From a virus, in the IMG/VR virus record IMGVR_UViG_2140918012_000003: a stretch of DNA of 64,000 bases; one strand, written 5' to 3'. The notes below the pieces were generated by a model that was given only the letters and a program-made list of their open reading frames with translations, did not search any database and was not told where the DNA came from. Each line of letters starts with the position of its first letter. Positions within the stretch are counted from its first letter, which is position 1. Shown in pieces: positions 3,689-46,642 of this stretch. A program made the position numbers and the translations under genes.

Positions 3689-5134
3689 ATGAGCCTTTCT
3701 CCCGAGATGGAACTACTTGTCAATGAGTACCACACCAAGCAGATGAACGATCGGGAACGCGCAGCGCTTGAGGCTCGCATCTGGGACCAAGCCGATGCTG
3801 CTGCACGGTCTATGAAACGGCATGAGTACCTGGCTAAGTTACTCAATGTGTCTAATTACTACGAGGTTATTGTGCGCGGGATGCTCTACTACGCTGGTGA
3901 GGTAGCTGAGCCGCTGTGGGAACGGGTGCTCAAAAAAGAAATGACCTACGGCGGTGCAGCTAAGATGCTGCGCGAAGCTCGTCGAGTGTCGAAGATATAT
4001 AACCTCAAGCTTTCAGAAACGCTAACTGGCATGATTGCTAAGTACGAAAGCCTGCCTGCGACCAAGTTTGCTGACGGTCGGATCACTCGCAAGAATTACG
4101 GTAAGAAGGGCAGGAAGAAGATGGCGTCTGAAGCACCCGAGGCAGCCCCGGCCACCACCCCTATCTTGCCGACACCTGTACCAATTGTGCAAGCTCCTGC
4201 ACCTGCTCCAAAGCCCATGCCGCCAAAGCGCCAGCCGCTGGCCTATTTGATCGAGCAGCACAAATCTGAATCATCTGAACGTAAGCGGGCTGCAATTGAG
4301 GCTATCGTGTGGGAGCGTGCTCCCAAGGATTCGCGCAAGAACCGCCGTGAAGTTTACCTTGCGGGTGTGCTCGGTGATAAAGCCGATGCAATCCGGTCCA
4401 GAGCCGATTTGTACAATAGCGGGGAAGCTGCTTCGGCTGCTCTTTGGGATCGTGTAGAAGGTGATGACATGCCGCTTAATACGGCTGTACGGCTCATGCG
4501 TGATGCCAAGCGTCTTGCAGCCAAAAATAAGAAGCTGGGCCTGCCTGGTGCTGTTGCTGAGATTTTGACTAAGTATGACTCTATCGGCAATGTTGTGCGG
4601 CGGGTAGACGGCAAGAAAGTCCGAGTGCGTGGTTCGACGCGCCTGCCAGATCTGGAGCGCGAAAAGCTCAAGCTCAAACTTGGCCTGGGGAAGGATAAGA
4701 CCCCTGAGAATTTCTGGGCTCGCCTGCGGCAAGAGATTGCTTCACACATGGCTACACGGCTCACTGATGTTGAGCCTGCTGTTGCTCAGGAGCTTTGGGG
4801 CAAGCTGGAACTTGATCTAAAAGCGCTGGTTGCGGAATTTCAACACCGGATCGAGCGCTATAAAAAAGAGGGCAGTCGCACTCAGATCGTGTCGCGCCGT
4901 GATATCATCGACTCATGCCGCATTCTTGGCTTGGATCCACCAGATCGTGGAGCAAGTGTGAATATCAAGCTTGCAGCCAAGCTGAAGAAGATGCTGGTGC
5001 GAGAGTACCACCCTGATGTGTCGTCAGACGAACGAAACCGCGATCGTCTTGATGACGTAATCAAGGCTTACCACATCATTGAGACCTATAATAAGCAAGT
5101 CAAGGGCGCTGTAGTTAGAACGGAAACCAATTGA
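3689..5134 (+). CDS. protein with internal duplication and C-terminal J-domain (DnaJ-like)
   Basis: C-terminal ILGL...LVREYHPD...VIKAYHII with HPD motif; two similar ~90-aa units separated by a Pro/Ala linker; ATG 3689 chosen. Confidence 0.7.
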   Translation: MSLSPEMELLVNEYHTKQMNDRERAALEARIWDQADAAARSMKRHEYLAKLLNVSNYYEVIVRGMLYYAGEVAEPLWERVLKKEMTYGGAAKMLREARRVSKIYNLKLSETLTGMIAKYESLPATKFADGRITRKNYGKKGRKKMASEAPEAAPATTPILPTPVPIVQAPAPAPKPMPPKRQPLAYLIEQHKSESSERKRAAIEAIVWERAPKDSRKNRREVYLAGVLGDKADAIRSRADLYNSGEAASAALWDRVEGDDMPLNTAVRLMRDAKRLAAKNKKLGLPGAVAEILTKYDSIGNVVRRVDGKKVRVRGSTRLPDLEREKLKLKLGLGKDKTPENFWARLRQEIASHMATRLTDVEPAVAQELWGKLELDLKALVAEFQHRIERYKKEGSRTQIVSRRDIIDSCRILGLDPPDRGASVNIKLAAKLKKMLVREYHPDVSSDERNRDRLDDVIKAYHIIETYNKQVKGAVVRTETN

Positions 5135-23475: not shown

Positions 23476-24477
23476 ATGCGCGGACTCGACGTAGGTACTA
23501 GCTTCCTCATATCTGCCAAAGAGGGCAAAGGCGACACTGTAATCTTTTCGGAGATACGCGACGCCTTCTTCCGGCTCACGCCAACCTCGCCTATTTCAGC
23601 TAGCATGATCCAAAAAGGTCTAGCTGGTAAAAAGCACTTCAAAGACACAGACGGCTCCTACGTAGTGGTTGGCCAAGACGCGATCGAGAAGGCCGTGGAG
23701 CGACACCTTTCGGCTCTTAGGCCAATGCACAGGGGAATTATATCACCCAAGGAAAAAGACGCTAGGCGCATTCTCAAGTACATCATGTCGGAAGTCCTGG
23801 GGCCACCGACCGAGAAGGGCGAAAAGCTAGTTTATTGCGTGCCGGCGCAGCCCATCGATGAGGCCAGTGATGATTTCGATGTAGGCTACCATGAAGATGC
23901 CCTGAACATGGACCTGCGCTCTTTGGGTTATGAGCCAAGCTCAATCAACGAGGCAGAGGCTATCTGCTATTCGGAATTGGCCAATGATGATTACACGGGC
24001 GTTGCGCTAAGCTTCGGTGCAGGGCTCGTAAATATTGCTGTAATGAGCAGTGGTGAGGCTGTTTTGAAGTTCAGCCTGAATAAATCTGGTGACTACGTGG
24101 ACAGGATGGCTGCTACGTCTACCGGTACACCTGACTCAGTAGTCCAAATCGAAAAAGAAAATGGTGATTTCACCGTAGGGCAGGAAGTCCCAGATAGTAT
24201 CGTGCTGTCGGCTGTCTCAAGCTACTACGTGCGCCTGATAGACTACGCTGTCAAAAATCTAGCTGCTCGCCTGAATGGTCCTGATCTACCCAAATTTACG
24301 AAGCCTATCCCCATCGTCATTGCTGGTGGTACATCCAAGGCCAAGGGGTTTATCGAGCAGTTCAATAAAGCCCTGGCAGCCAACAAGCTCAGCATCCCTG
24401 TGAGTGAAGTCAGGTCTGCGACGGATCCGCTTCGGGCAGTAGCACGCGGGTGTCTTATTGCGGGATCGGTGTTGTGA
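23476..24477 (+). CDS. actin-like ATPase (MreB/FtsA/ParM fold)
   Basis: GLDVGTS phosphate-1; SFGAG phosphate-2; VIAGGTS adenosine motif; DPLRAVARG connect-2. Confidence 0.85.
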   Translation: MRGLDVGTSFLISAKEGKGDTVIFSEIRDAFFRLTPTSPISASMIQKGLAGKKHFKDTDGSYVVVGQDAIEKAVERHLSALRPMHRGIISPKEKDARRILKYIMSEVLGPPTEKGEKLVYCVPAQPIDEASDDFDVGYHEDALNMDLRSLGYEPSSINEAEAICYSELANDDYTGVALSFGAGLVNIAVMSSGEAVLKFSLNKSGDYVDRMAATSTGTPDSVVQIEKENGDFTVGQEVPDSIVLSAVSSYYVRLIDYAVKNLAARLNGPDLPKFTKPIPIVIAGGTSKAKGFIEQFNKALAANKLSIPVSEVRSATDPLRAVARGCLIAGSVL

Positions 24478-24830: not shown

Positions 24831-25126
24831 AGCTCTACCGTACAGCTACCGCAAACAGTGTTCTTGAACCAGCCGGGTTTTGGACGCCTGACCAAAAATA
24901 TGCTCGTTATGTCCACCCTGACCGGCGACTCTATGTGGCCAGTGTGCGTAGCGGTGCTAACGTCAAGAAGTACGCTGGGTCACCAACCCGCGCTATTTTA
25001 GAGGGTGCTATTGAGGATGGTGTGGATATCGCTGTTTTTGACGCATGGGACTGGATGACAGAAGAGTTTGTTGTTCTTGACCCGGTCGTCCTTGCGAACG
25101 TGAGACCGTTAGCCGGAGCACCGTAA
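24827..25126 (+). CDS. hypothetical protein (possible ART-like fold)
   Basis: LYRT...FWTPDQKYARY pattern. Confidence 0.5.
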   Translation: MKLYRTATANSVLEPAGFWTPDQKYARYVHPDRRLYVASVRSGANVKKYAGSPTRAILEGAIEDGVDIAVFDAWDWMTEEFVVLDPVVLANVRPLAGAP

Positions 25127-25158
25127 TGCCCGCAATTAAGCACTGGATCGAACCTTCC

Positions 25159-26061
25159 ATGAAACGCTTACTATTTGCTATCCTGGCCCTCGCCGCCTGC
25201 CCGAAGCCATCAACGACACCCGATGCAGGCCCACAGACGCGCCCAGTATTTACGATCAAAAATGGGTGTGCTGAAGAAATCTGGATTCAGCAACAGGGCA
25301 TGCCTGCTGGAACACCCGCAGTTGTGAAGCTTGAACGTGGGAAGGGCACGACTTACAACATTCCCATTGCAGGTCTTGCGAGCACCCGCTTTTGGGCTAA
25401 GTGGGGCTGCGATAAAGACGGGCAAAATTGCAAGGTGGGCCAAAGCTCGCCTCCATGCCCCAAGACAGGCTGCGCGCCACCTGTTGACTCTAAAATAGAG
25501 GCCACGTGGGGTTGCGATTTGCCAGAGGCCCAGTGTGGCCGAACCCCGCAGGGCAAGACGCTCAAGGGGGCGACGTTTTGGAACGCTTCAGCCGTTGACG
25601 GCTACACGCTGCCATTCCAGATCGAAGTAGGTGCAGGTGGTGGTGCTGGATGCGAGCCAGTTAATTGCAACGAAACCTACCAGGGCCAGTGCCCGACCGA
25701 TGAGAATCTGAGTACGGACGGTAAGTACCCCGATCTCAAGAGCGTCGATTTGCATGCTTCAGATGGGTATGGGTGTTTTTCACCGTGTATGAAACTTACA
25801 ACGGCGACGAGTGCTGGTGGCAAGGGCTACCTGCCAAGTGACGCGCAGGCTCAATGGTATTGCTGTCCCACGCCGCCTATTTCAAGCCCTGCTTGTCAAA
25901 AAGGGCCTGTACCCAAGACCAAATATGTGCAAAATATCCATGCTGCTTGCCACAATACTGCGTATGGCTACGCCTACGATGATGGCCTCGGCACACGCAC
26001 CTGTACGCCGACCACGAAGATCATAATGACCTATTGCCCTCCGCAGCCAGCAGCAAAATGA
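25159..26061 (+). CDS. thaumatin-family (PR-5-like) lipoprotein
   Basis: lipobox LAAC after MKRLLFAIL; TIKNGC, RFWAKWGC, SAVDGYTLP, AYGYAYDD and many Cys. Confidence 0.82.
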   Translation: MKRLLFAILALAACPKPSTTPDAGPQTRPVFTIKNGCAEEIWIQQQGMPAGTPAVVKLERGKGTTYNIPIAGLASTRFWAKWGCDKDGQNCKVGQSSPPCPKTGCAPPVDSKIEATWGCDLPEAQCGRTPQGKTLKGATFWNASAVDGYTLPFQIEVGAGGGAGCEPVNCNETYQGQCPTDENLSTDGKYPDLKSVDLHASDGYGCFSPCMKLTTATSAGGKGYLPSDAQAQWYCCPTPPISSPACQKGPVPKTKYVQNIHAACHNTAYGYAYDDGLGTRTCTPTTKIIMTYCPPQPAAK

Positions 26062-29038: not shown

Positions 29039-29299
29039 ATGATTATTTACACCAAACCAGGCACGACTAGCAGGGTGCATCTCCATAATTTTGGCGAAAA
29101 ACTTAGATTTAGGTTCGGCTTCGAAAAGTGGCTTGATGTAGACGCTGCGATCATGATGAACCTCAAAGGTGAGCAGCCAGCCTTGTATGAAATTGGAGAT
29201 CGTCTGATCGACGCACGCGATGCTCTGAAAGCCCAGGAGCTTGCAGACGCGATGGAACTTTCTGCCAAGCTTGGCACGCGAGGTAAGGGCAATGAGTAG
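29039..29299 (+). CDS. hypothetical protein
   Basis: 86-aa ORF. Confidence 0.55.
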   Translation: MIIYTKPGTTSRVHLHNFGEKLRFRFGFEKWLDVDAAIMMNLKGEQPALYEIGDRLIDARDALKAQELADAMELSAKLGTRGKGNE

Positions 29300-31058
29300 C
29301 CTTTGCGCCTGCTGTGGTCAAAACCGGTGCAAGGTATGCCCTTGCTCGACGTGCAATTTGCCTGAAGAGACGCCAGCTAAAGCAGTTTTTAGTGCTCCCT
29401 TTGCAGATGGCGTAAAGCCGCTAATTGTCGCGCAGAATTTTACGTCTGGGGATGGGTTCACGCAGATCAATAGTCCAAACACAGTCACGTCTGCAACGTC
29501 AGGGCAAGCGAACCTAGGTTTCCGGTCTCCTACTACGAACGTGGTAGATACAAGCACAGAAGATTTTTGCCTCTGCCTTAAATTTGATATGAACCAATTT
29601 ACTGGCAGTCGGGCACGATTTCAAGTGCTGCTGTCGAACCCTAGCCTTAACGATTCATTCAGCTTTTCAACATCGGTCGGTAATTACATAGTTAGCTATA
29701 GTGGTCCTTCAGGTAGTGGCTCTGCCAATCTCGGCCCAGTTGTACCAGAGCGTGTGACTTTCAAAATGTGTGCTCGGCGCACCGGCCCGGACGCTGGTCT
29801 TTTGACGTACAAGCGCGTGGGCAGTGTGACTGGTACGTTTTCTGGTGTACTGGGTATTGCTGCGGGCTATCCGTCTGCACCTATGGAAGTTGATCTCACC
29901 CAGTCTGCGCAAGGCGCTGGTCAACTTAATATTGTAGACACTACACTACACGACCTGTGTATGCAGATTGGTGATTCGCGGCTTTGTTGCTGTGATGCTG
30001 CAATGCCGGCTGTTGAGAGTATTGCAATTGCCCTAGATGAGGTTACCGGCCCCACTTTCGGGCAGCCGTTCATGTTTTCTAACTTTATCTACACTATTAC
30101 ACTAGCCGCACCGGCAACTGAAGCCTTCGATGGGTTTATCAAGCTGCCGACAGGGGCTTTCGGGACATTACCCACTTTACCTTTTCATTTCGATGTAGGT
30201 CAGCAGACACTCAAGGGAGCAATCCTAGCAACATTTCCGTTTGATTTGAGTTTCTATTTTACGTCCGGTAATGGCTACGAAGTCAATGTGTTCAGGACGT
30301 GCAGTGACCTGGCGGTGAGTGCCCCTGTGCCTTTCACGGTATACGGCACCCAGGAGATTACAGTATGCAAGTCGGCAGATTCAATCCCACCGCTTGGGTC
30401 TAATAGTTACAGTTTTGAGTTGTCTAACGATGTACCTAGATCTTGGGGTACCACAAATTTTTCACCTGGTCAATGCTTTACACTTACTCCGTACAATGTT
30501 TGGTTCGCCCCTGGTTTGGCCCCGGAACTCATAGTCACTGAGACAATTAACGGCATGCCACCAAATGTAGTGGTGACGGCCATTACCGTAACGCCACCAA
30601 CAGCCGAGGTGCCCCTTAGCCAGACAGGTCTTGGTACGCAGACGGCGTCGGTCAGGGTATTCAGCCTACCGGGTGGTGCCACGGTTACGTTCAGGAATGG
30701 TATATCATTAGATGCGGTCTTGAACGGCACCCAAGTAGTGCCGCCCAACGGGTCGGGGGCATCGGGAACGCTGACCGGGTCGTTTAATTCAAGTACTTCT
30801 ATATTTACTTTTGATATGACATTTACGGGCCTTACTAGCCCGGCTACGGGTGCCACTATACACCAGGGGCCTATTGGGGTAAACGGTCCTGTTCAATTTG
30901 GGCTACCAGGTTTCCCGGCAGCTACATCAGGTGTATACTCAAATTCAATCCTAATACCAGGCCCACTGGTTGGTCCGCTGCTCGCTGGTGGTCTGTACGT
31001 ACAGATTGCAGATGCCGCATTCCCAGTTGGCGAAATCCGTGGGCAGATTCTTCCCTAG
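29292..31058 (+). CDS. Cys-tagged multidomain beta-rich protein with C-terminal CHRD domain
   Basis: N-term CACC..C..C.C..C; C-term LNGTQVVPP...IHQG..GVNGPV...LLAGGLYV...FPVGEIRGQI. Confidence 0.75.
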   Translation: MSSLCACCGQNRCKVCPCSTCNLPEETPAKAVFSAPFADGVKPLIVAQNFTSGDGFTQINSPNTVTSATSGQANLGFRSPTTNVVDTSTEDFCLCLKFDMNQFTGSRARFQVLLSNPSLNDSFSFSTSVGNYIVSYSGPSGSGSANLGPVVPERVTFKMCARRTGPDAGLLTYKRVGSVTGTFSGVLGIAAGYPSAPMEVDLTQSAQGAGQLNIVDTTLHDLCMQIGDSRLCCCDAAMPAVESIAIALDEVTGPTFGQPFMFSNFIYTITLAAPATEAFDGFIKLPTGAFGTLPTLPFHFDVGQQTLKGAILATFPFDLSFYFTSGNGYEVNVFRTCSDLAVSAPVPFTVYGTQEITVCKSADSIPPLGSNSYSFELSNDVPRSWGTTNFSPGQCFTLTPYNVWFAPGLAPELIVTETINGMPPNVVVTAITVTPPTAEVPLSQTGLGTQTASVRVFSLPGGATVTFRNGISLDAVLNGTQVVPPNGSGASGTLTGSFNSSTSIFTFDMTFTGLTSPATGATIHQGPIGVNGPVQFGLPGFPAATSGVYSNSILIPGPLVGPLLAGGLYVQIADAAFPVGEIRGQILP

Positions 31059-36721: not shown

Positions 36722-37744
36722 ATGTACAAGCTGCTTACACGTGATGCCTTTCGCGAGAGCGTCTTTGCACGCGATGGGCACAAGTGCATCTTGTGCAAGT
36801 CACCAGCCGTCGATGCCCACCACGTTATCGAACGACGCCTCTTCCCGGATGGTGGCTATTATCTCTCAAATGGCGCCTCTGTCTGCGAAAGCTGCCATCT
36901 GCGCTGTGAAGCCACGCTGGTTTCCTGTGAAGAAGTACGGGCTGCGGCCGGTATCAAACAGCTAGTCCTACCACCGCATTTGTACGCTGACGCAGAACAA
37001 GCCTACGATAAATGGGGCAACCCAATCTTGCCTAACGGCCAGCGGCTTCGCGGCGAGCTATTCGATGATGCCTCGGTACAAAAGGTCTTAGCACCGGTTC
37101 TTCATCTTTTCACAAACCGTGTGAAATACCCTCGTACTTGGCACCTGCCGTTTTCACCGGGCATGCACGATGATGACCGCATGATCGAATCGACTGCGCA
37201 CTTCGTAGGGCAGCGTGTAGTCGTCACCGAAAAACTCGATGGCGAGAACACTACCATTTATCGTGATTACGTTCATGCACGTTCGCTCGATTACGCACCT
37301 CGGGTTGACCGAGACTGGGTGCGTGCGCTAGCGGCTCGCATCGGTTATGAGCTAGACGAAGACTATCGTGTATGTGGAGAAAACCTTTGGGGGACCCACG
37401 CCATTAAATACACGCAACTACCATCATACTTCATGGTGTTTTCGCTGTGGGATGGGCTAAAGTGCTTGCCATGGGATGACACCAAGGACTGGGCTGCACT
37501 TCTGGGCTTGCAAACTGTACCGGTGCTCTTTGATGGTATCTGGGATGAAAATTTAATTCGCAAGCTGCACCAGAAACGCCGAGGTGTTGACGAGTCTGAA
37601 GGGTTCGTGGTACGCTTGGCTGGTAGCTTTCACTATCGAGATTTTCGTCATGCTGTCGCTAAGTACGTGAGGGCTGGTCACGTTGCTGGCTCACATGCGT
37701 ATACTACAAAACGCATTTTTGAAAGAAATGGGCTAGTACGATGA
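36722..37744 (+). CDS. HNH domain - RNA ligase fusion protein
   Basis: N-term RDGHKCILC...DAHH...NGASVCESCH; C-term KYPRT, TEKLDGEN (motif I), CGENL, EGFVVR, KYVR. Confidence 0.85.
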   Translation: MYKLLTRDAFRESVFARDGHKCILCKSPAVDAHHVIERRLFPDGGYYLSNGASVCESCHLRCEATLVSCEEVRAAAGIKQLVLPPHLYADAEQAYDKWGNPILPNGQRLRGELFDDASVQKVLAPVLHLFTNRVKYPRTWHLPFSPGMHDDDRMIESTAHFVGQRVVVTEKLDGENTTIYRDYVHARSLDYAPRVDRDWVRALAARIGYELDEDYRVCGENLWGTHAIKYTQLPSYFMVFSLWDGLKCLPWDDTKDWAALLGLQTVPVLFDGIWDENLIRKLHQKRRGVDESEGFVVRLAGSFHYRDFRHAVAKYVRAGHVAGSHAYTTKRIFERNGLVR

Positions 37745-40722: not shown

Positions 40723-42057
40723 ATGGGTTCCGAGGCAGACAAAAGCACTGAAAAAGCCCTAGTAATCGCATCTAGCGCTGAAATCAGCGAAAATTCGCCT
40801 ACTAGCACAGGGTTGGTAATTCATAATAGCCCAGCTAATAATAGAGGGATAGTCAGTCGGCTCGCCGCGCCCTCGACCGAGCTAGCCCCAAGGCGCATCA
40901 CCGCAGCATCAGCCGGCGTCCAGCCCCCTAAGGCAGCGCATGTATTCACCTTCTCTATAGCTGACATCGATGATAGCCTACGCAACAACGCCAAATTAGC
41001 GTACGAGGCTTGGCTTAACCACAAACCAAAATCTAAGAGAGCCTACGTCGATAGTTTCAAAGCGTTCATGCGTTTCGTTGGAGCCACGACAACAGAAGAC
41101 GCAGCAGCCTTCCTCTTAGCTGGTGGCCATGTGCATGCTCAGGCCATCTTGGCAAATTTTGCCAAGCACTTGTTAACCGCTCAACGGGTCACGATGACCG
41201 GCCGTAGAACGATTGCGCCTGACTTAACCAGGTTGCCAACCACGGTACGGAATAGGCTGGCTGCGGTGCGATCCTTTTTGAAGTCAGCTAACACCAACAA
41301 TGTAATCGACTGGACTGTAGAATTCAAACCAAAAGACCACAACATACCAGCAGCCAGGCCATACTCAAAAGTAGAAGGCCCAGGCGCCAAGATGCTGGAG
41401 GTTATCTACGACCACTATACGAATGGGCTTGATGCGGCACGAGCTTCTGGAGATTCAAAAACCGCGACCAGGCTGGCTCGGGACTTTGCTATCTTGTCTC
41501 TCATGATGTTTGCAGCCCTGCGGCGTAAAGAGATAGCTGGTCTAGAAATCACCGATATTGACCTGACTGACTTGTCCAGCGCTCGCGTTAACATCCTAGG
41601 AAAAGGGCGAGAGCACAAGGAATGGTTCAATGTTACGAAAGAAGCGGTCATGCCGATATCTGAATGGTTGACCTACCGGTCAACCGTCGAGGGAGCAGAT
41701 CGGCATAATAACCTCTTCATTTCTTTGTCCACACGCAGCGATGAAAAAGGTACACCTCTTCGCCTCAACGCCTACAACGATATTCTTGCTGAACTAGAAA
41801 TAACCCTAGGCTTGCCACCTGGTGTGTACCTGAAGCCTCATGGCTTTCGGCATACTGCGATTACATACGCCTATGAAAATTACGGAGAGCAGGCTGCTAT
41901 CGCCCTGGCACGACATGCGGATCTTGCGACCACGATGCGCTACATCGATAGTATCAGGAAAGCCCTTGCAAGTCTAGAAGCTATGCGTGGGTTGGCAGAA
42001 AAAATAGCAAGGAGACGACCCGCCGTGATGGCGCTACCAATCTCCTATTCGCCCTGA
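40723..42057 (+). CDS. tyrosine recombinase/integrase (XerC/D-like)
   Basis: catalytic residues present: ALRRKEI (R), GKG (K), PHGFRH (HxxR), ARHADLATTMRY (H, Y). Confidence 0.93.
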   Translation: MGSEADKSTEKALVIASSAEISENSPTSTGLVIHNSPANNRGIVSRLAAPSTELAPRRITAASAGVQPPKAAHVFTFSIADIDDSLRNNAKLAYEAWLNHKPKSKRAYVDSFKAFMRFVGATTTEDAAAFLLAGGHVHAQAILANFAKHLLTAQRVTMTGRRTIAPDLTRLPTTVRNRLAAVRSFLKSANTNNVIDWTVEFKPKDHNIPAARPYSKVEGPGAKMLEVIYDHYTNGLDAARASGDSKTATRLARDFAILSLMMFAALRRKEIAGLEITDIDLTDLSSARVNILGKGREHKEWFNVTKEAVMPISEWLTYRSTVEGADRHNNLFISLSTRSDEKGTPLRLNAYNDILAELEITLGLPPGVYLKPHGFRHTAITYAYENYGEQAAIALARHADLATTMRYIDSIRKALASLEAMRGLAEKIARRRPAVMALPISYSP

Positions 42058-42099: not shown

Positions 42100-44286
42100 T
42101 TGCACTGTTCGCCTAAATTTCCAGTCAGGGACCTCGGTCAGTTGCACTGTTCGCCTAGTCAGGCTTACCTCACAGAAGTGCGGCACGCAAGCGCCGAATC
42201 GCGCTGGCCAAGGACCGCTTCTTGGCCGACAGGCCGAACCTGATCATACTCTCGATCTGAAAGTAGGTCAGGTCTCTATTGACCGCGTTAACGCTGTCAG
42301 CGACCTGCTGCTCTAGTTCTGCCTCGGGCAGTTCCTCTACAAATCCGAGTAGGTTGAGAAGATTTTCACGGGTTCCCTAGGTCACGCCTGGGCATCTTTA
42401 CTTAGCTCTTCAATGAACGAACGGTCGGTTTACGACCCTTCCATTTACTATCGCGAACAGGCTTGATCGTACACAACGGGCCATCCGGTCAGCACACACG
42501 ATCAAACACGGGTGGACGCAATTGCACTGTTCGCCAGAGAGTCGTCGCATGTCAGATTGCACTGTTTGCCTTGAAGACCTGCGTTGGCTTCCAGGATTAC
42601 TGCACTGTTCACCGAACATTTCACGTCGCGGGTATTTTTCTCTTGCACTGTTCGCCGCTAAGTTTTTTAATCTACGAGTACTTCCTTTTGCACTATTCGC
42701 TTGCGGGCCTGCACTGTTCACCCTAAATGGTCGCCTTTCGCGCCAAGTACTTGCTTGCACTGTTTGCCGCCAAAGTCAACATGGTCATCCACGACACTTG
42801 CACTGTTCTTCCCAAAGTCGAGGAAACAACTCGACGAGATAGCTTGCACTGTTTGCCACACTTGAGGAATGATCTGCTCAGAAACCGTGGAAGTCGCATT
42901 CAGGTCGATTGACGGCGCCCGCTCAATGGCTTCGCGCAGGGCCGCTCCAGAGTCGCATTGCACTATTCGCTAAAAAGGTTATGGCCAAAAAGAGAAACTT
43001 GCACTATTCGCACCTCAGGCACAACGTCGATCTGGGGCGACTCAAAAACTTGCACTGTTCGCTTAAATTCGCCGTCATGCTTTTTCGCCTAAGTTGAGAA
43101 AATCGAGCGCTCTGCACTATTCGCCTGAATCAGCGTGAAAACCATGGCGCTCCTGGACCGACCTTGCACTGTTCGCCTGATAACAAAGCTGCGTGGGCCA
43201 AGCTGCGGCAGCACAAATTGCACTGTTCGCCTAAATTGCCTCTCGCCACATAACCTCAACTAGACGTGTACATTATTGCACTGTTCGCGTCAAGACCTTT
43301 TTGAACAAAGGCCAGGTCTCCCAGATGGATTGCACTGTTTGCCAAATTTAGCAAGGGCGGCTGCACATGCTGCACTGTTCACCTTAAAGAGCGTCGCGTC
43401 GTACACCTTGCACTGTTTCGCCTAAACCCTGAGAGCGTTCAGACCGCCTTTCCGTATTGCACTGTCCTTGAAAAAGTACGACAACCGCTGGTCTTGCATT
43501 GTTCGCCAGACTAATACGAGGGCGCGCTTTCTTCTTGCACTGTTTTGCCATCGACGGCGCCGAGTAATTGCACTGTTTCGCCTAAACCATGTTCTTCCCC
43601 AGAAGAACTCCGTCTTGCACTATTCGCAGACCTGATACCCCTTGCACTGCTCGCCATCCTCTTTAACCACCAGGTAGAACCGCCACTGGATTTGCACTGC
43701 TTCGCCAGCCAGTCCAACGAGATCATCTTACACTGTTCGCCACAGAGGAACCATCATGCGCTATTGCACTGTATCGCGACTTTGCACAACGGGAAACTAG
43801 TCGGAATCGAACCGAATTTGCACTACTCGCTAAGAAGATTGAAGATGTTGTCTTTGCACTGTTTTAGCACAAATTCCTGAGACGAATTGCATTGCTCGCC
43901 TAGAAGCCGAAAGTGGTAGACGGCTTGCACTGTTTCGCCAACACACTCTCATCGTCGTCGGCACTTGCACTGTTTTGCCTAAAGCTTAATCACGTCCGCA
44001 ATCTGAATTGCACTGCTCGCGTTTAGGGGAGCGTCTTCCGATCTTAGCGCTGCCCTTCAAGGGAGGATGTTTGTGCCAACAGCTTTCTTGCACTGTTCAC
44101 CTGATGAATCATGCTCCACATCAGGCCAGCTTCTCGCAGTCGCCATGCTCGGATAATCGAATTTGCACTGCTCACCTGAACCCATCACAAACAGTCGTGA
44201 CGCTCGCCGCTTGCACTGTTCTGCCCTATTTCAAAATTATCAAAGATCGAATGTTCACCTGGGACTACTCTACTGCATTATTCGCC
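42100..44286 (-). CRISPR. non-canonical CRISPR-like array: about 40 x 14-bp repeat (+ strand TTGCACTGTTCGCC; - strand GGCGAACAGTGCAA) with unique spacers
   Basis: 40 copies counted by eye from 42100 to 44273; 31 of 39 periods are 33-58 bp; adjacent to a Cas12f-like gene and an anti-repeat hairpin. Confidence 0.75.
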
Positions 44287-44298
44287 AGTAAGAAAAGT

Positions 44299-44384
44299 GG
44301 GGTGCCCGCCGATTGGCGAACTTACGCGGAGCAACGTCCACGCATCCGGCACAAGTGCAATTGGCCGTCGGAGACGGGCACCCC
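44299..44384 (-). ncRNA. putative tracr/scaffold RNA with split anti-repeat
   Basis: 10-bp perfect terminal stem (GGGGTGCCCG/CGGGCACCCC) plus CCGA/TCGG; contains GGCGAAC (44315-21) and AGTGCAA (44354-60), the two halves of the repeat in inverted orientation; inner stem needs G-U pairs available only on the - strand. Confidence 0.7.
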
Positions 44385-44396
44385 GAATTTGTGTGG

Positions 44397-45005
44397 TTAC
44401 GCGGCGACAGCCTCCTGGGTGCGCTCCACGTTTACGCCCAGCCCCATAAGGCCACCACAGGCGATATCCACGGCAGTCCTGTGCTTGCCTGGATCTAGCT
44501 CTGCAATGATCGAGAGTACATCAATGGCGCGTTGCAGTTTGTCAGAAACTACGCCCCTTTTTTGTTTGGGCACCGCAACACCAAGGGCCAGGGCTTCTTC
44601 CCTCACGATATTGGCGACATGCCGATCTGAAGGTGTAGTGCCAGCTTCTGCTTGAAAAGACAGCAAGTGGGCTTTGACGTTTTCGTAGATGGCAGTACTG
44701 GCCTTCTTGGCAAGCTTCGGATCTGAAGCGTCAAGAGCACCGGCTAGAGCACACGCCCCAGCAAGACCAAGAGCATCGGCCCGCTTGCGCCCGTAGCGCT
44801 TAACGGCGCTATTATACTTGTTGTAAGTGGCCACCGAAACATGGAGCACTTCGCGCAGCAACTGGTCAAACGTCTTAAATTGGCCGACCCAGCTTTGCGA
44901 CTGGTCAAACTCCAAACACAGACCGAAGACCCGCAGCTTGGCCGCTTCGCCTTCTTTCTTGGCGTCCAGAATGTCAGTTACAAATGTTGCAAAGCTCTTT
45001 TTCAT
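44397..45005 (-). CDS. hypothetical protein, putative HTH DNA-binding accessory of the Cas12f-like locus
   Basis: 202 aa; ATGA overlap with the Cas12f-like gene; W..QFKTFDQLLREVLHVS..TY resembles phage HTH-type motifs. Confidence 0.7.
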   Translation of the reverse strand: MKKSFATFVTDILDAKKEGEAAKLRVFGLCLEFDQSQSWVGQFKTFDQLLREVLHVSVATYNKYNSAVKRYGRKRADALGLAGACALAGALDASDPKLAKKASTAIYENVKAHLLSFQAEAGTTPSDRHVANIVREEALALGVAVPKQKRGVVSDKLQRAIDVLSIIAELDPGKHRTAVDIACGGLMGLGVNVERTQEAVAA

Positions 45006-46603
45006 CGAATTTCCCCTTGCACGACCGCTGGAGCGGCTTTCTTCATGCGTGCGACCTTCATCTCGGCCTTGGTATTGCTGATCATCTTATCGGTGCGTGA
45101 GATAGCTTTGATAAGGGCAGCCTTGTATGGCTCGCCAGCGACCTTGGATGACAATAGCATGTTCTGGATGGAAGTCAACTCCAAATCGCCACTATGCTGA
45201 CAGTTGACGCACTCAAAAAAGCCATCCTTGGCGTCGTAGCCTACCACTTTGGGTAGACGCTTGATATTTTCCTTGCAAGTATGACTGCACACAGGGCATT
45301 TCTGCGAGATAAAAGCTGATGCCTCTTCGTTGACCTTGACCCCAGCCCTGCGGGTGAGCGCGTCAATCACACGGCCTTTCAATTCGGCCAGCGGGAACCT
45401 ACGCACGTAGGGTGCCAAATTCGGGTCGTCGGATTGGAAGGCTCCGAAATTATCGAGTAGCACAATACTAGCACCGTGGCGCTCAGCGAAGACCTGCACA
45501 GCTTTGGCTGCACGCCAAAGCTCTGTGTCGGTAAAGCGTGCCTCTTTATCGGAGAGCTTTTTCAGAGCAGCAAAATGCTTCTTCTTGCCTCGACCTGCGT
45601 GGGGTGTAGCGCTCAGGTCTTTTTGAATGAGCTTGCGCCGAGCATACATCTGCGATTTGAGGCGCACCAAATTCGTGCCTGGGTAGCTGCCCGTGGTCAC
45701 ATGGTTCTTCTTGTCGATCGCCAGGAACGACAGCATGTTCACGACGCCACGGTGAACAATCACGAGCGAGTCAGACTCTTCTTTTGCGAGCCGCGAAGAC
45801 TTGTAGGGAAGGCGCACGAACCATTTTTCGGGCTGGCCTGGCCGGCGCACCCGAGCAATTTGCAGGGCGCCTTTAGCATAGCCTTCGGCTTCTGGAACAT
45901 CGCTCTTGTCGTAGTCAATGGCCACGAGCTTTTTCAGCACCTCGACCATCGAGGCCACGCCACGGCCATGCAGGCTTTTACACACGAGGCGCATCTTGCC
46001 CTCACCGGGGCGCCAAGCCGAAGTTTCGATGACGACGTTCGTGTAGGTCTTGGGTTGACCCGTGCGAACGTCGGTTTTAGTCACTTCCTCAAAGAGCACA
46101 CGCCAGTTCCGGTTCCTGATCGTAAAAGGGACGTTACGTAGCAACGGGAAGGACGAATCGCCACGCAGAAGCGCGTTGAGCCTGTCACCGGCAAATTCCG
46201 AATCCACGATCCGCTTGGTAACGCTTGACCAGATATACTCGGTCAAGCCTGTAGCCTTCATGGCCTTTTCAACAGCCGTCTTGAACCCTACCGTGTCCCA
46301 GCACTCGGAAGGTAGCGGTACCTCTTGATCTTTGAGCATGGCGCGCTCATCAGCCGTAGAAAAGCGCATCTTGCCAGCCATACGCTGGTCCCGAAGCGAG
46401 ACAGCGATATCTGCGATAGCCACCTGAGCAGCCTTGCCGATATCACGGCTGGCAGTGCGTAGCTCTGCCCAGGCTTTCGTTCCGTCCGTTTTTTCAGGGC
46501 GGTAAAGCTCAAGCGTCATACAGGCGACCGGGTTTTTGGTCGGCTTGTGGACGCTGGATTCTTCTTCATCGAAATCATCGAGCGCGTCAGCAGCTTCTTG
46601 CAT
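45002..46603 (-). CDS. Cas12f/TnpB-family RNA-guided protein, predicted nuclease-inactive
   Basis: LLRGDSSFP, GRGKKK...LSDKEARF..., SQKCPVC and FECVNC zinc ribbon; RuvC positions read H287, D387, E478 (ORF-track numbering) in place of D/E/D; ATG 46603 is 7 nt after the -10 box. Confidence 0.85.
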   Translation of the reverse strand: MQEAADALDDFDEEESSVHKPTKNPVACMTLELYRPEKTDGTKAWAELRTASRDIGKAAQVAIADIAVSLRDQRMAGKMRFSTADERAMLKDQEVPLPSECWDTVGFKTAVEKAMKATGLTEYIWSSVTKRIVDSEFAGDRLNALLRGDSSFPLLRNVPFTIRNRNWRVLFEEVTKTDVRTGQPKTYTNVVIETSAWRPGEGKMRLVCKSLHGRGVASMVEVLKKLVAIDYDKSDVPEAEGYAKGALQIARVRRPGQPEKWFVRLPYKSSRLAKEESDSLVIVHRGVVNMLSFLAIDKKNHVTTGSYPGTNLVRLKSQMYARRKLIQKDLSATPHAGRGKKKHFAALKKLSDKEARFTDTELWRAAKAVQVFAERHGASIVLLDNFGAFQSDDPNLAPYVRRFPLAELKGRVIDALTRRAGVKVNEEASAFISQKCPVCSHTCKENIKRLPKVVGYDAKDGFFECVNCQHSGDLELTSIQNMLLSSKVAGEPYKAALIKAISRTDKMISNTKAEMKVARMKKAAPAVVQGEIR

Positions 46604-46610
46604 GTTGGTC

Positions 46611-46642
46611 ACTATACTCCTATGGTTCTTGACGTGTCAAGA
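46611..46642 (-). promoter_or_regulatory. promoter of the Cas12f-like operon with palindrome over the -35 box
   Basis: TTGACA-18-TATAGT on - strand; TCTTGAC-gt-GTCAAGA inverted repeat 46627-46642. Confidence 0.7.

Follow-up and report, generated by a model that had tools for sequence, protein, structure and literature searches.

The 64,000-nucleotide (nt) stretch of IMG/VR virus record IMGVR_UViG_2140918012_000003 analyzed here (the window) contains, between positions 42100 and 44286, about 40 copies of a 14-nt repeat interspersed with unique spacers. A first-pass annotation, made from the letters alone, had described this region as a CRISPR-like array related to those of Cas12f systems and read on the minus strand. 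The regular repeats of ~23 to 47 bp and near-constant spacers of a conventional array are not found in the window, where the repeats span 14 nt (~19 nt with a weakly conserved flank) and the spacers range from 7 to 366 nt. This raises the question as to what the array encodes and which machinery it serves. We consider it probable that the array, on the minus strand, supplies guide RNAs to a type V-F-like system that is derived from Cas12f and carried by the phage. In its core, the original assignment is supported by the repeat ends of related loci and by a covarying complementarity between the repeats and a structured scaffold RNA.

All 40 of the repeat starts listed at first pass carry, on the plus strand, a TTGCAC-type copy of the 14-nt consensus TTGCACTGTTCGCC. 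Seven copies are perfect, and most of the remainder differ from the consensus by one or two transitions. When up to three mismatches are allowed, the window contains 41 matches, compared with 7.8 ± 2.7 expected from 100 shuffles (maximum, 15); 36 of the 41 lie within 42100 to 44286, and all 36 are on the plus strand. The repeat array is real and far above chance. Eight copies carry the extra single base that had been noted previously, each time in the middle of the repeat, at the junction of two 7-nt halves. A T-rich flank (TTTnA), only weakly conserved, lies 5' of the core on the minus strand and extends the conserved unit to ~19 nt. Conservation then ends sharply, with none beyond 6 nt upstream of the core and no trace of a longer repeat in the window.

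The spacers are mostly 18 to 48 nt in length (extremes, 7, 13, 61, 66, 100, and 366 nt), and 37 of the 39 are at least 18 nt long. Similarity between spacers does not exceed that of shuffled controls, in agreement with their earlier description as variable and unrepeated, and decayed repeat copies are present inside some of the long ones. Tandem Repeats Finder made no call across the array region, which is consistent with the guess that periodicity-based finders would miss it. The longest interruption, of 366 bp (42156 to 42521), separates two distal perfect repeats from the remainder of the array. It contains a 68-codon stop-free frame on the minus strand (42170 to 42376) with a helical-looking predicted peptide; this frame has no ATG, GTG, or TTG start and no family match, and it may be a gene fragment or a small gene inserted in the array.

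The main evidence on the nature of the array is comparative and involves an 86-nt trans-activating CRISPR RNA (tracrRNA)-like scaffold located beside it on the minus strand (44299 to 44384). A covariance model built from five scaffold copies recovers its core in the window (44306 to 44377, 89 bits) and finds the scaffold in 12 further loci, sister contigs included, always on the gene strand. An outer stem, formed by 44375 to 44384 with 44299 to 44308, encloses two hairpins (P2 and P3) and a single-stranded segment. The loop of P2 presents the sequence UUGCACU (44354 to 44360, here anti-repeat half B), and the single-stranded segment between P3 and the closing stem presents GUUCGCC (44315 to 44321, half A). 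Jointly, these two halves complement the 14-nt repeat exactly. A run of U residues (44290 to 44298) follows the scaffold on the minus strand.

The scaffold fold is well supported across the family. Pairing holds in 99% of the cells of the family alignment, and cells changed on both sides number 22, compared with 5.3 in shuffles; the covariation score was reached by none of 500 shuffles, and controls in which the pairing partner was slid pair at 34 to 45%. The strand of the scaffold is fixed because of invariant G-U pairs. Rfam holds no family for it at curated or loose thresholds. The scaffold usually lies 100 to 200 nt upstream of the effector gene and is downstream in the window and in two other loci (L003 and L032).

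If the repeats pair with the scaffold, the two should change together, and they do. For each locus, we took the reverse complement of that locus's own two anti-repeat halves as the predicted repeat core and counted matches on both strands. The core predicted for the window, GGCGAACAGTGCAA, matched 30 times in the forward orientation and never in reverse. Likewise, only forward matches were found for L011 (GATGAGGAATGCAA, 13 forward and 0 reverse), L001 (AGTGAATTGTGCAA, 15 and 0), L013 (AAGAGTGTATGCAA, 14 and 0), and L004 (AAGAGCGTATGCAA, 6 and 0), with a poorer fit for L014 (2 and 0) and L016 (1 and 0). In most repeat-bearing loci, then, the scaffold-predicted core matches the locus's own repeats on the gene strand only, and matches across loci are confined to those with near-identical scaffold halves. 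The pattern extends to a distant member, where the scaffold carries UUGUACU and CAGGAA and the repeats read TTCCTG-ACAG-AGTACAA.

The pairing of a tracrRNA anti-repeat with the repeat of a CRISPR RNA (crRNA) is thus present at this locus, and covariation of a DNA repeat with two segments of a structured RNA is, on comparative grounds, a prediction of a crRNA handle rather than of a protein site. Cas12f guide RNAs make two repeat:anti-repeat contacts, and the contact here would be pseudoknot-like, as it is in them. L011 has two tandem scaffold copies (3761 to 3830 and 3894 to 3963) that differ in half A (CCTCATC and CTTCATC), and these match two repeat variants, GATGAGG and GATGAAG, of a single array.

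The related loci also indicate the direction in which the array is read. The arrays of relatives run in the direction of the effector gene. In several loci, the 3' end of the gene and the first repeat overlap, and in some the array lies upstream. We therefore read the window array (~40 units, 42100 to 44286) on the minus strand, as GGCGAAC followed by AGTGCAA with a unique spacer 3' of each unit, an orientation with which the complementarity to the minus-strand scaffold agrees. The repeats of relatives are 36 to 37 nt long and end in GAATGCAA(G/C) or GGTGCAAG, with spacers of about 27 to 40 nt, and the gene-proximal parts of these arrays have the regular repeats and near-constant spacers that the window lacks. 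In distal units, the last 14 to 16 nt of the repeat stay intact, but its 5' two-thirds is decayed and the units lie closer together. The first-pass inference that acquisition is not ruler-based is unsupported: regular units of ~36 + 36 nt erode distally to core-only repeats with shortened spacers, and irregular spacing may therefore arise after acquisition.

Judged from these sequences, a trend to core-only repeats runs through the family and is at its most extreme in the window. The continuum from 36- to 37-nt repeats to bare cores would exist because only the scaffold-pairing 3' core is under selection, and the window would represent its fully minimized end. Erosion from long repeats is plausible: the relatives make it likely, although the window itself keeps no trace of it. 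To our knowledge, no CRISPR-like array is more compact. The differences between sister contigs comprise entire units (nine long units between L001 and L002 and two internal units between L011 and L012), and the spacers of relatives match sister arrays only. Every effector homologue is on a phage-like metagenomic contig, and a search for the family in the reference genome collection found none, with just one further locus in metagenomes. No cas1, cas2, or cas4 gene was found among the neighbors of any locus, the scan of the window being nonexhaustive. Several relatives also have single core repeats and small extra arrays scattered over several kilobases on the effector strand, often between genes (L014, 2898 to 7859; L016, 2064 to 8998; L018, 1103 to 6051; L013, 3883 to 4020), and these may be dispersed stand-alone guide units.

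The effector gene (45002 to 46612, minus strand) encodes a Cas12f-family protein of 533 to 536 amino acids (aa) with a zinc-ribbon TNB domain. A profile of 26 homologues searched against the PDB matched SpCas12f1 (9i8y, E value 1.8e-21) as well as AsCas12f, OsCas12f, and Cas14a. In a Foldseek search with an AlphaFold model of the effector (predicted local distance difference test score, 84.7), Cas12f chains took ranks 1 to 17 over the full length of the model, led by AsCas12f, OsCas12f, SpCas12f1, CnCas12f1, and Un1Cas12f1; LaTranC was also among the fold matches. Profile and model alike show the Cas12f fold, with WED and REC domains and a RuvC domain split by the zinc-ribbon TNB, and the CxxC...CxxC motif is invariant in the family. 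Directly upstream of the gene lies a promoter-like site, TTGACA-18-TATAGT (46611 to 46640, minus strand), which agrees with the consensus at 11 of 12 positions and is called from that match only.

The canonical Asp-Glu-Asp RuvC triad is not present in this protein, which has His287, Asp387, and Glu480 at the corresponding positions. Across the family, the RuvC-I His is invariant (motif VHR[SG]V), RuvC-II has Asp in nearly all members (Glu in P0028), and at RuvC-III most members have Asp whereas the window protein has Glu. The acidic RuvC-II and RuvC-III residues, the zinc ribbon, and the C terminus are all present, and RuvC-I is the only nonconservative change. A profile search of 1.84 billion representatives returned some 20 family clusters of full length. 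Of the 75 best representative matches, nearly all combine the RuvC-I His (motif HRG) with Glu and Asp at the two remaining motifs, and the substitution is therefore an old, conserved trait of a wide clade rather than recent decay. These alignments point to a large clade with a conserved alternative RuvC site, and the effector may be limited to binding, or it may cleave with a modified site. The His clade also takes in proteins that match the RuvC half only (P0029 to P0075).

From this arrangement we infer transcription, RNA processing, guide length, targets, and biological role as follows. The minus-strand order beside the array is promoter-like site, effector gene, gene for a 202-aa protein, and scaffold, and the array would be transcribed from the same strand downstream of all of these. 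Each unit would provide a 14-nt handle, the 5' half of which (GGCGAAC) would pair with the single-stranded segment of the scaffold and the 3' half of which (AGUGCAA) would pair with the loop of P2. Cas12f guide RNAs typically have a repeat:anti-repeat contact in two parts, which would in this way be cut down to 7 + 7 bp, and a bulge at the junction of the halves would do no harm. About 20 nt after the handle would act as the guide, with the remaining spacer acting as a linker. As to its role, the system most likely interferes with rival mobile elements or host genes or silences them.

A bolder form of this proposal, which we put forward only tentatively and regard as unlikely, is that the locus is a hard-wired programme of ~40 guides for a His-Asp-Glu Cas12f derivative, with the array built and kept without Cas1-Cas2 from units that need no more than a 14-nt handle. 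If this is true, a CRISPR-type system works, and perhaps grows, with repeats far shorter than known integrase-based adaptation needs. Growth might then occur by recombination or another capture route, and the system might be used for multiplex silencing of host or rival-phage genes.

Several results weigh against a functional guide-RNA array. A search for an array promoter found nothing convincing, a terminator-like stem and U-run end the scaffold 12 nt ahead of the first, degenerate repeat, and the closest relative (L003) has no array in the 150 nt past its scaffold. Nearest-neighbor co-folding of the scaffold with a unit, computed without protein, did not predict the pairing; we regard this calculation as uninformative because the contact is pseudoknot-like and the energy was identical with a shuffled core. 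Wobble-compatible substitutions, tested on the minus strand, numbered 23 versus 12, a difference that is not significant after opportunity is counted.

Target searches were similarly unrewarding. No guide matched elsewhere in the window or in the loci retrieved, and against cultured phage records there was no match at the default threshold, with chance-level ones only at a loose E value. We also scanned IMG/VR with exact 20-mers taken from guide position 1 of seven guides, two of which matched over 20 to 21 nt, both matches ending at nt 20 to 21. The guide at 43218 matches 20 of 20 nt in four records (L019 to L022), within a small zinc-ribbon open reading frame (ORF), and the guide at 43050 matches 21 of 21 nt in L031, within an 81-aa ORF; both matches are antisense to the ORF. 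With an estimated chance rate of ~0.07 to 0.2 per 20-mer query, two matches from seven guides are not significant, and as targets they are suggestive at best. Two candidate sites are too few to define a shared flanking motif. When the whole array was compared with the four target records, no second guide matched, and a 24-mer from the first target was not found in the reference genomes.

These results bear on the most serious rival explanation, namely, that the array is an eroded, nonfunctional relic of a canonical Cas12f CRISPR array whose repeats have lost their 5' parts and whose spacers have been cut by deletions. The same erosion is seen at the distal ends of the otherwise regular arrays of relatives, and dead repeats within some long spacers, the empty target searches, and the terminator-like element ahead of the array all fit a relic. 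So does the distribution of decay in the window, where repeat degeneracy rises toward the effector gene (rho 0.46, P = 0.003), a polarity opposite to that in relatives. However, the consensus core still complements both anti-repeat halves without a mismatch, with seven perfect copies, and the edge of conservation outside the core is sharp rather than gradual, with insertions only at the half-junction. The spacers keep a length floor of ~18 nt, none of the three partners (effector gene, 202-aa gene, and scaffold) is broken, and a phage genome can scarcely accommodate 2 kb of junk. On balance, we consider a dead relic improbable.

Phages encode repeat-derived RNA anti-CRISPRs, and a 40-copy array of handles with arbitrary spacers would make a good sponge. 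The array might accordingly be an RNA decoy whose handles soak up a host Cas12f or its tracrRNA. This phage, however, has its own effector and scaffold, the anti-repeat of which fits the handles exactly and tracks them locus by locus, and the spacers have a lower length limit near guide length; we find a decoy very unlikely. Least probable of the three is that the repeats are protein-binding DNA sites (iterons, a partition centromere, or arm-type sites for a tyrosine recombinase or the 202-aa protein): they are direct repeats in a single orientation with irregular spacing, adjoining an integrase gene and near a switch of gene orientation and GC skew, but they covary with two structured-RNA segments across loci, in relatives their core forms the 3' end of conventional CRISPR repeats, and the integrase and 202-aa protein are missing from most family loci that keep repeats, such that no cognate DNA-binding protein travels with them. 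A repetitive protein, which the first-pass annotation had also raised, is ruled out, with no ORF across the array and repeat-to-repeat distances (16/12/11 modulo 3) that are without codon phase. None of the outcomes that the first-pass annotation had listed as refuting its reading was observed. Insertion of the units into a former gene was likewise rejected, as cutting the core plus 16 to 24 nt of guide from each unit restores no open frame.

Taking the array as that of a Cas12f-derived system, its closest counterparts are the type V-F systems with a tracrRNA (Un1Cas12f1/Cas14a, AsCas12f, OsCas12f, SpCas12f1, and CnCas12f1). The fold, including the zinc-ribbon TNB, is the same, the family repeats end in GAATGCAA(C/G), a tracrRNA makes two distinct contacts with the repeat, the array follows downstream of the effector gene, and adaptation genes are not nearby. 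Unlike in those systems, the repeat here is 14 nt (~19 nt with the weak flank) rather than ~36 to 37 nt, the spacers are irregular, there are 40 units, and His replaces the first RuvC Asp. The scaffold of the window lineage, moreover, is downstream of the effector gene, behind the extra 202-aa gene.

Work on TranC (transposon-CRISPR intermediates) has reportedly described a TnpB-type guide scaffold divided between a trans-acting portion and a short portion carried by the repeat. The omega-RNA arrays (PMC10691335) have this scaffold-splitting idea in common with the window system. Repeats in TranC and omega-RNA arrays are long, however, whereas the repeat-borne part here is 14 nt.

Altered nuclease sites among Cas12f derivatives are already known (PMC13472631 and PMC10691335). 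Nuclease-dead Cas12f and TldR regulators resemble the effector described here in being Cas12f or TnpB derivatives with an altered RuvC domain that use guides for DNA binding. They are C-terminally truncated and chromosomal, with a single fused guide RNA and linkage to sigma-E or helix-turn-helix (HTH) genes, whereas the present protein is full length, retains acidic RuvC-II and RuvC-III residues, and is phage-borne with a separate tracrRNA and 40 guides. Neither a fused guide nor a link to sigma-E or a regulated gene is seen here: a separate scaffold serves the 40 units, and none of their guides matches the window. A proposed history of nuclease-dead Cas12f does include an array minimized to a "half DR" (direct repeat) beside the tracrRNA (PMC10691335). 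The same study (Altae-Tran et al. 2023) describes V-U24, a CRISPR-linked Cas12 with a noncanonical RuvC-I and a neighboring HTH protein. The window clade may be V-U24, since the text description, on which this comparison is based, fits; minimal-repeat arrays are not described for it in the main text of that paper (PMC10691335).

Among phage-borne systems, Cas12r of Thermus Lalka phages (10.64898/2026.04.20.719267), Cas-lambda, and Cas-phi likewise have a compact Cas12 gene followed by a short array and no adaptation genes. Cas12r has degenerate repeats, and action against rival elements has been demonstrated for it and is presumed for Cas-lambda and Cas-phi. Cas12r differs in having an active RuvC domain, 29-bp repeats, and no tracrRNA, and all three effectors belong to Cas12 lineages other than that of the window. 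In the literature searched, we found no account of a 7 + 7-nt handle combined with one trans-acting scaffold, an irregular array of 40 units, and intermediate sister loci.

The locus would offer a natural case of a Cas12f guide to which the repeat contributes no more than 7 + 7 nt, with one scaffold RNA supplying the remainder in trans. Such a minimal handle would set a lower limit on the repeat content that a CRISPR system requires, and the sister loci display a stepwise path from regular to minimal arrays. This also raises the question of how units are gained without Cas1-Cas2. In practical terms, it suggests that very dense multiplex guide arrays could be designed for miniature Cas12f tools. 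Standard CRISPR finders likely miss arrays of this kind, which may be undercounted in phage genomes.

The surroundings of the module are phage DNA, with rIIA/rIIB-like proteins, an HNH-RNA ligase, a DNA methylase, an integrase, and many small ORFs in two divergent blocks. The 202-aa protein (P0002; 44397 to 45005, minus strand) has no assigned function, and its start overlaps the effector stop codon. Its sole detected homologue (40% identity) is at the same position in L003, the closest relative; it has no family match and no homologue by word search, the look-alikes (DUF3102-like and from Acidobacteriota) being weak. On the other side, a tyrosine recombinase (phage integrase) gene on the plus strand (40723 to 42057) ends 42 bp from the distal repeat. 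We treat it as a neighbor whose membership in the system is not supported, and a dedicated recombinase was rejected, as L004 is the only other locus line with an integrase close to the module, and the remaining flanks have none. No sigma factor match was found among the ORFs scanned near the module.

Other features were observed in the flanks of relatives and elsewhere in the window. In L011, a 404-aa protein with a Y1 transposase domain (PF01797; 1760 to 2974) is encoded 1 kb upstream of the scaffold and is not at that position in its sister, L012. Sequences judged by eye to be tRNA-like lie just upstream of the module in L003 (1 to 135) and L004 (5080 to 5150). A few kilobases from the Cas12f module of the window, an HNH endonuclease domain is fused to an RNA ligase (36722 to 37744; phrog_24030, E value 8e-123). 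The window also encodes a phage actin-like protein of the volactin family (23476 to 24477; PF25216, E value 1.7e-64) and two proteins that are unusual as phage cargo, a thaumatin-family protein (25126 to 26061; PF00314) and a protein of 605 aa (29241 to 31058) that has a CHRD domain at its C terminus.

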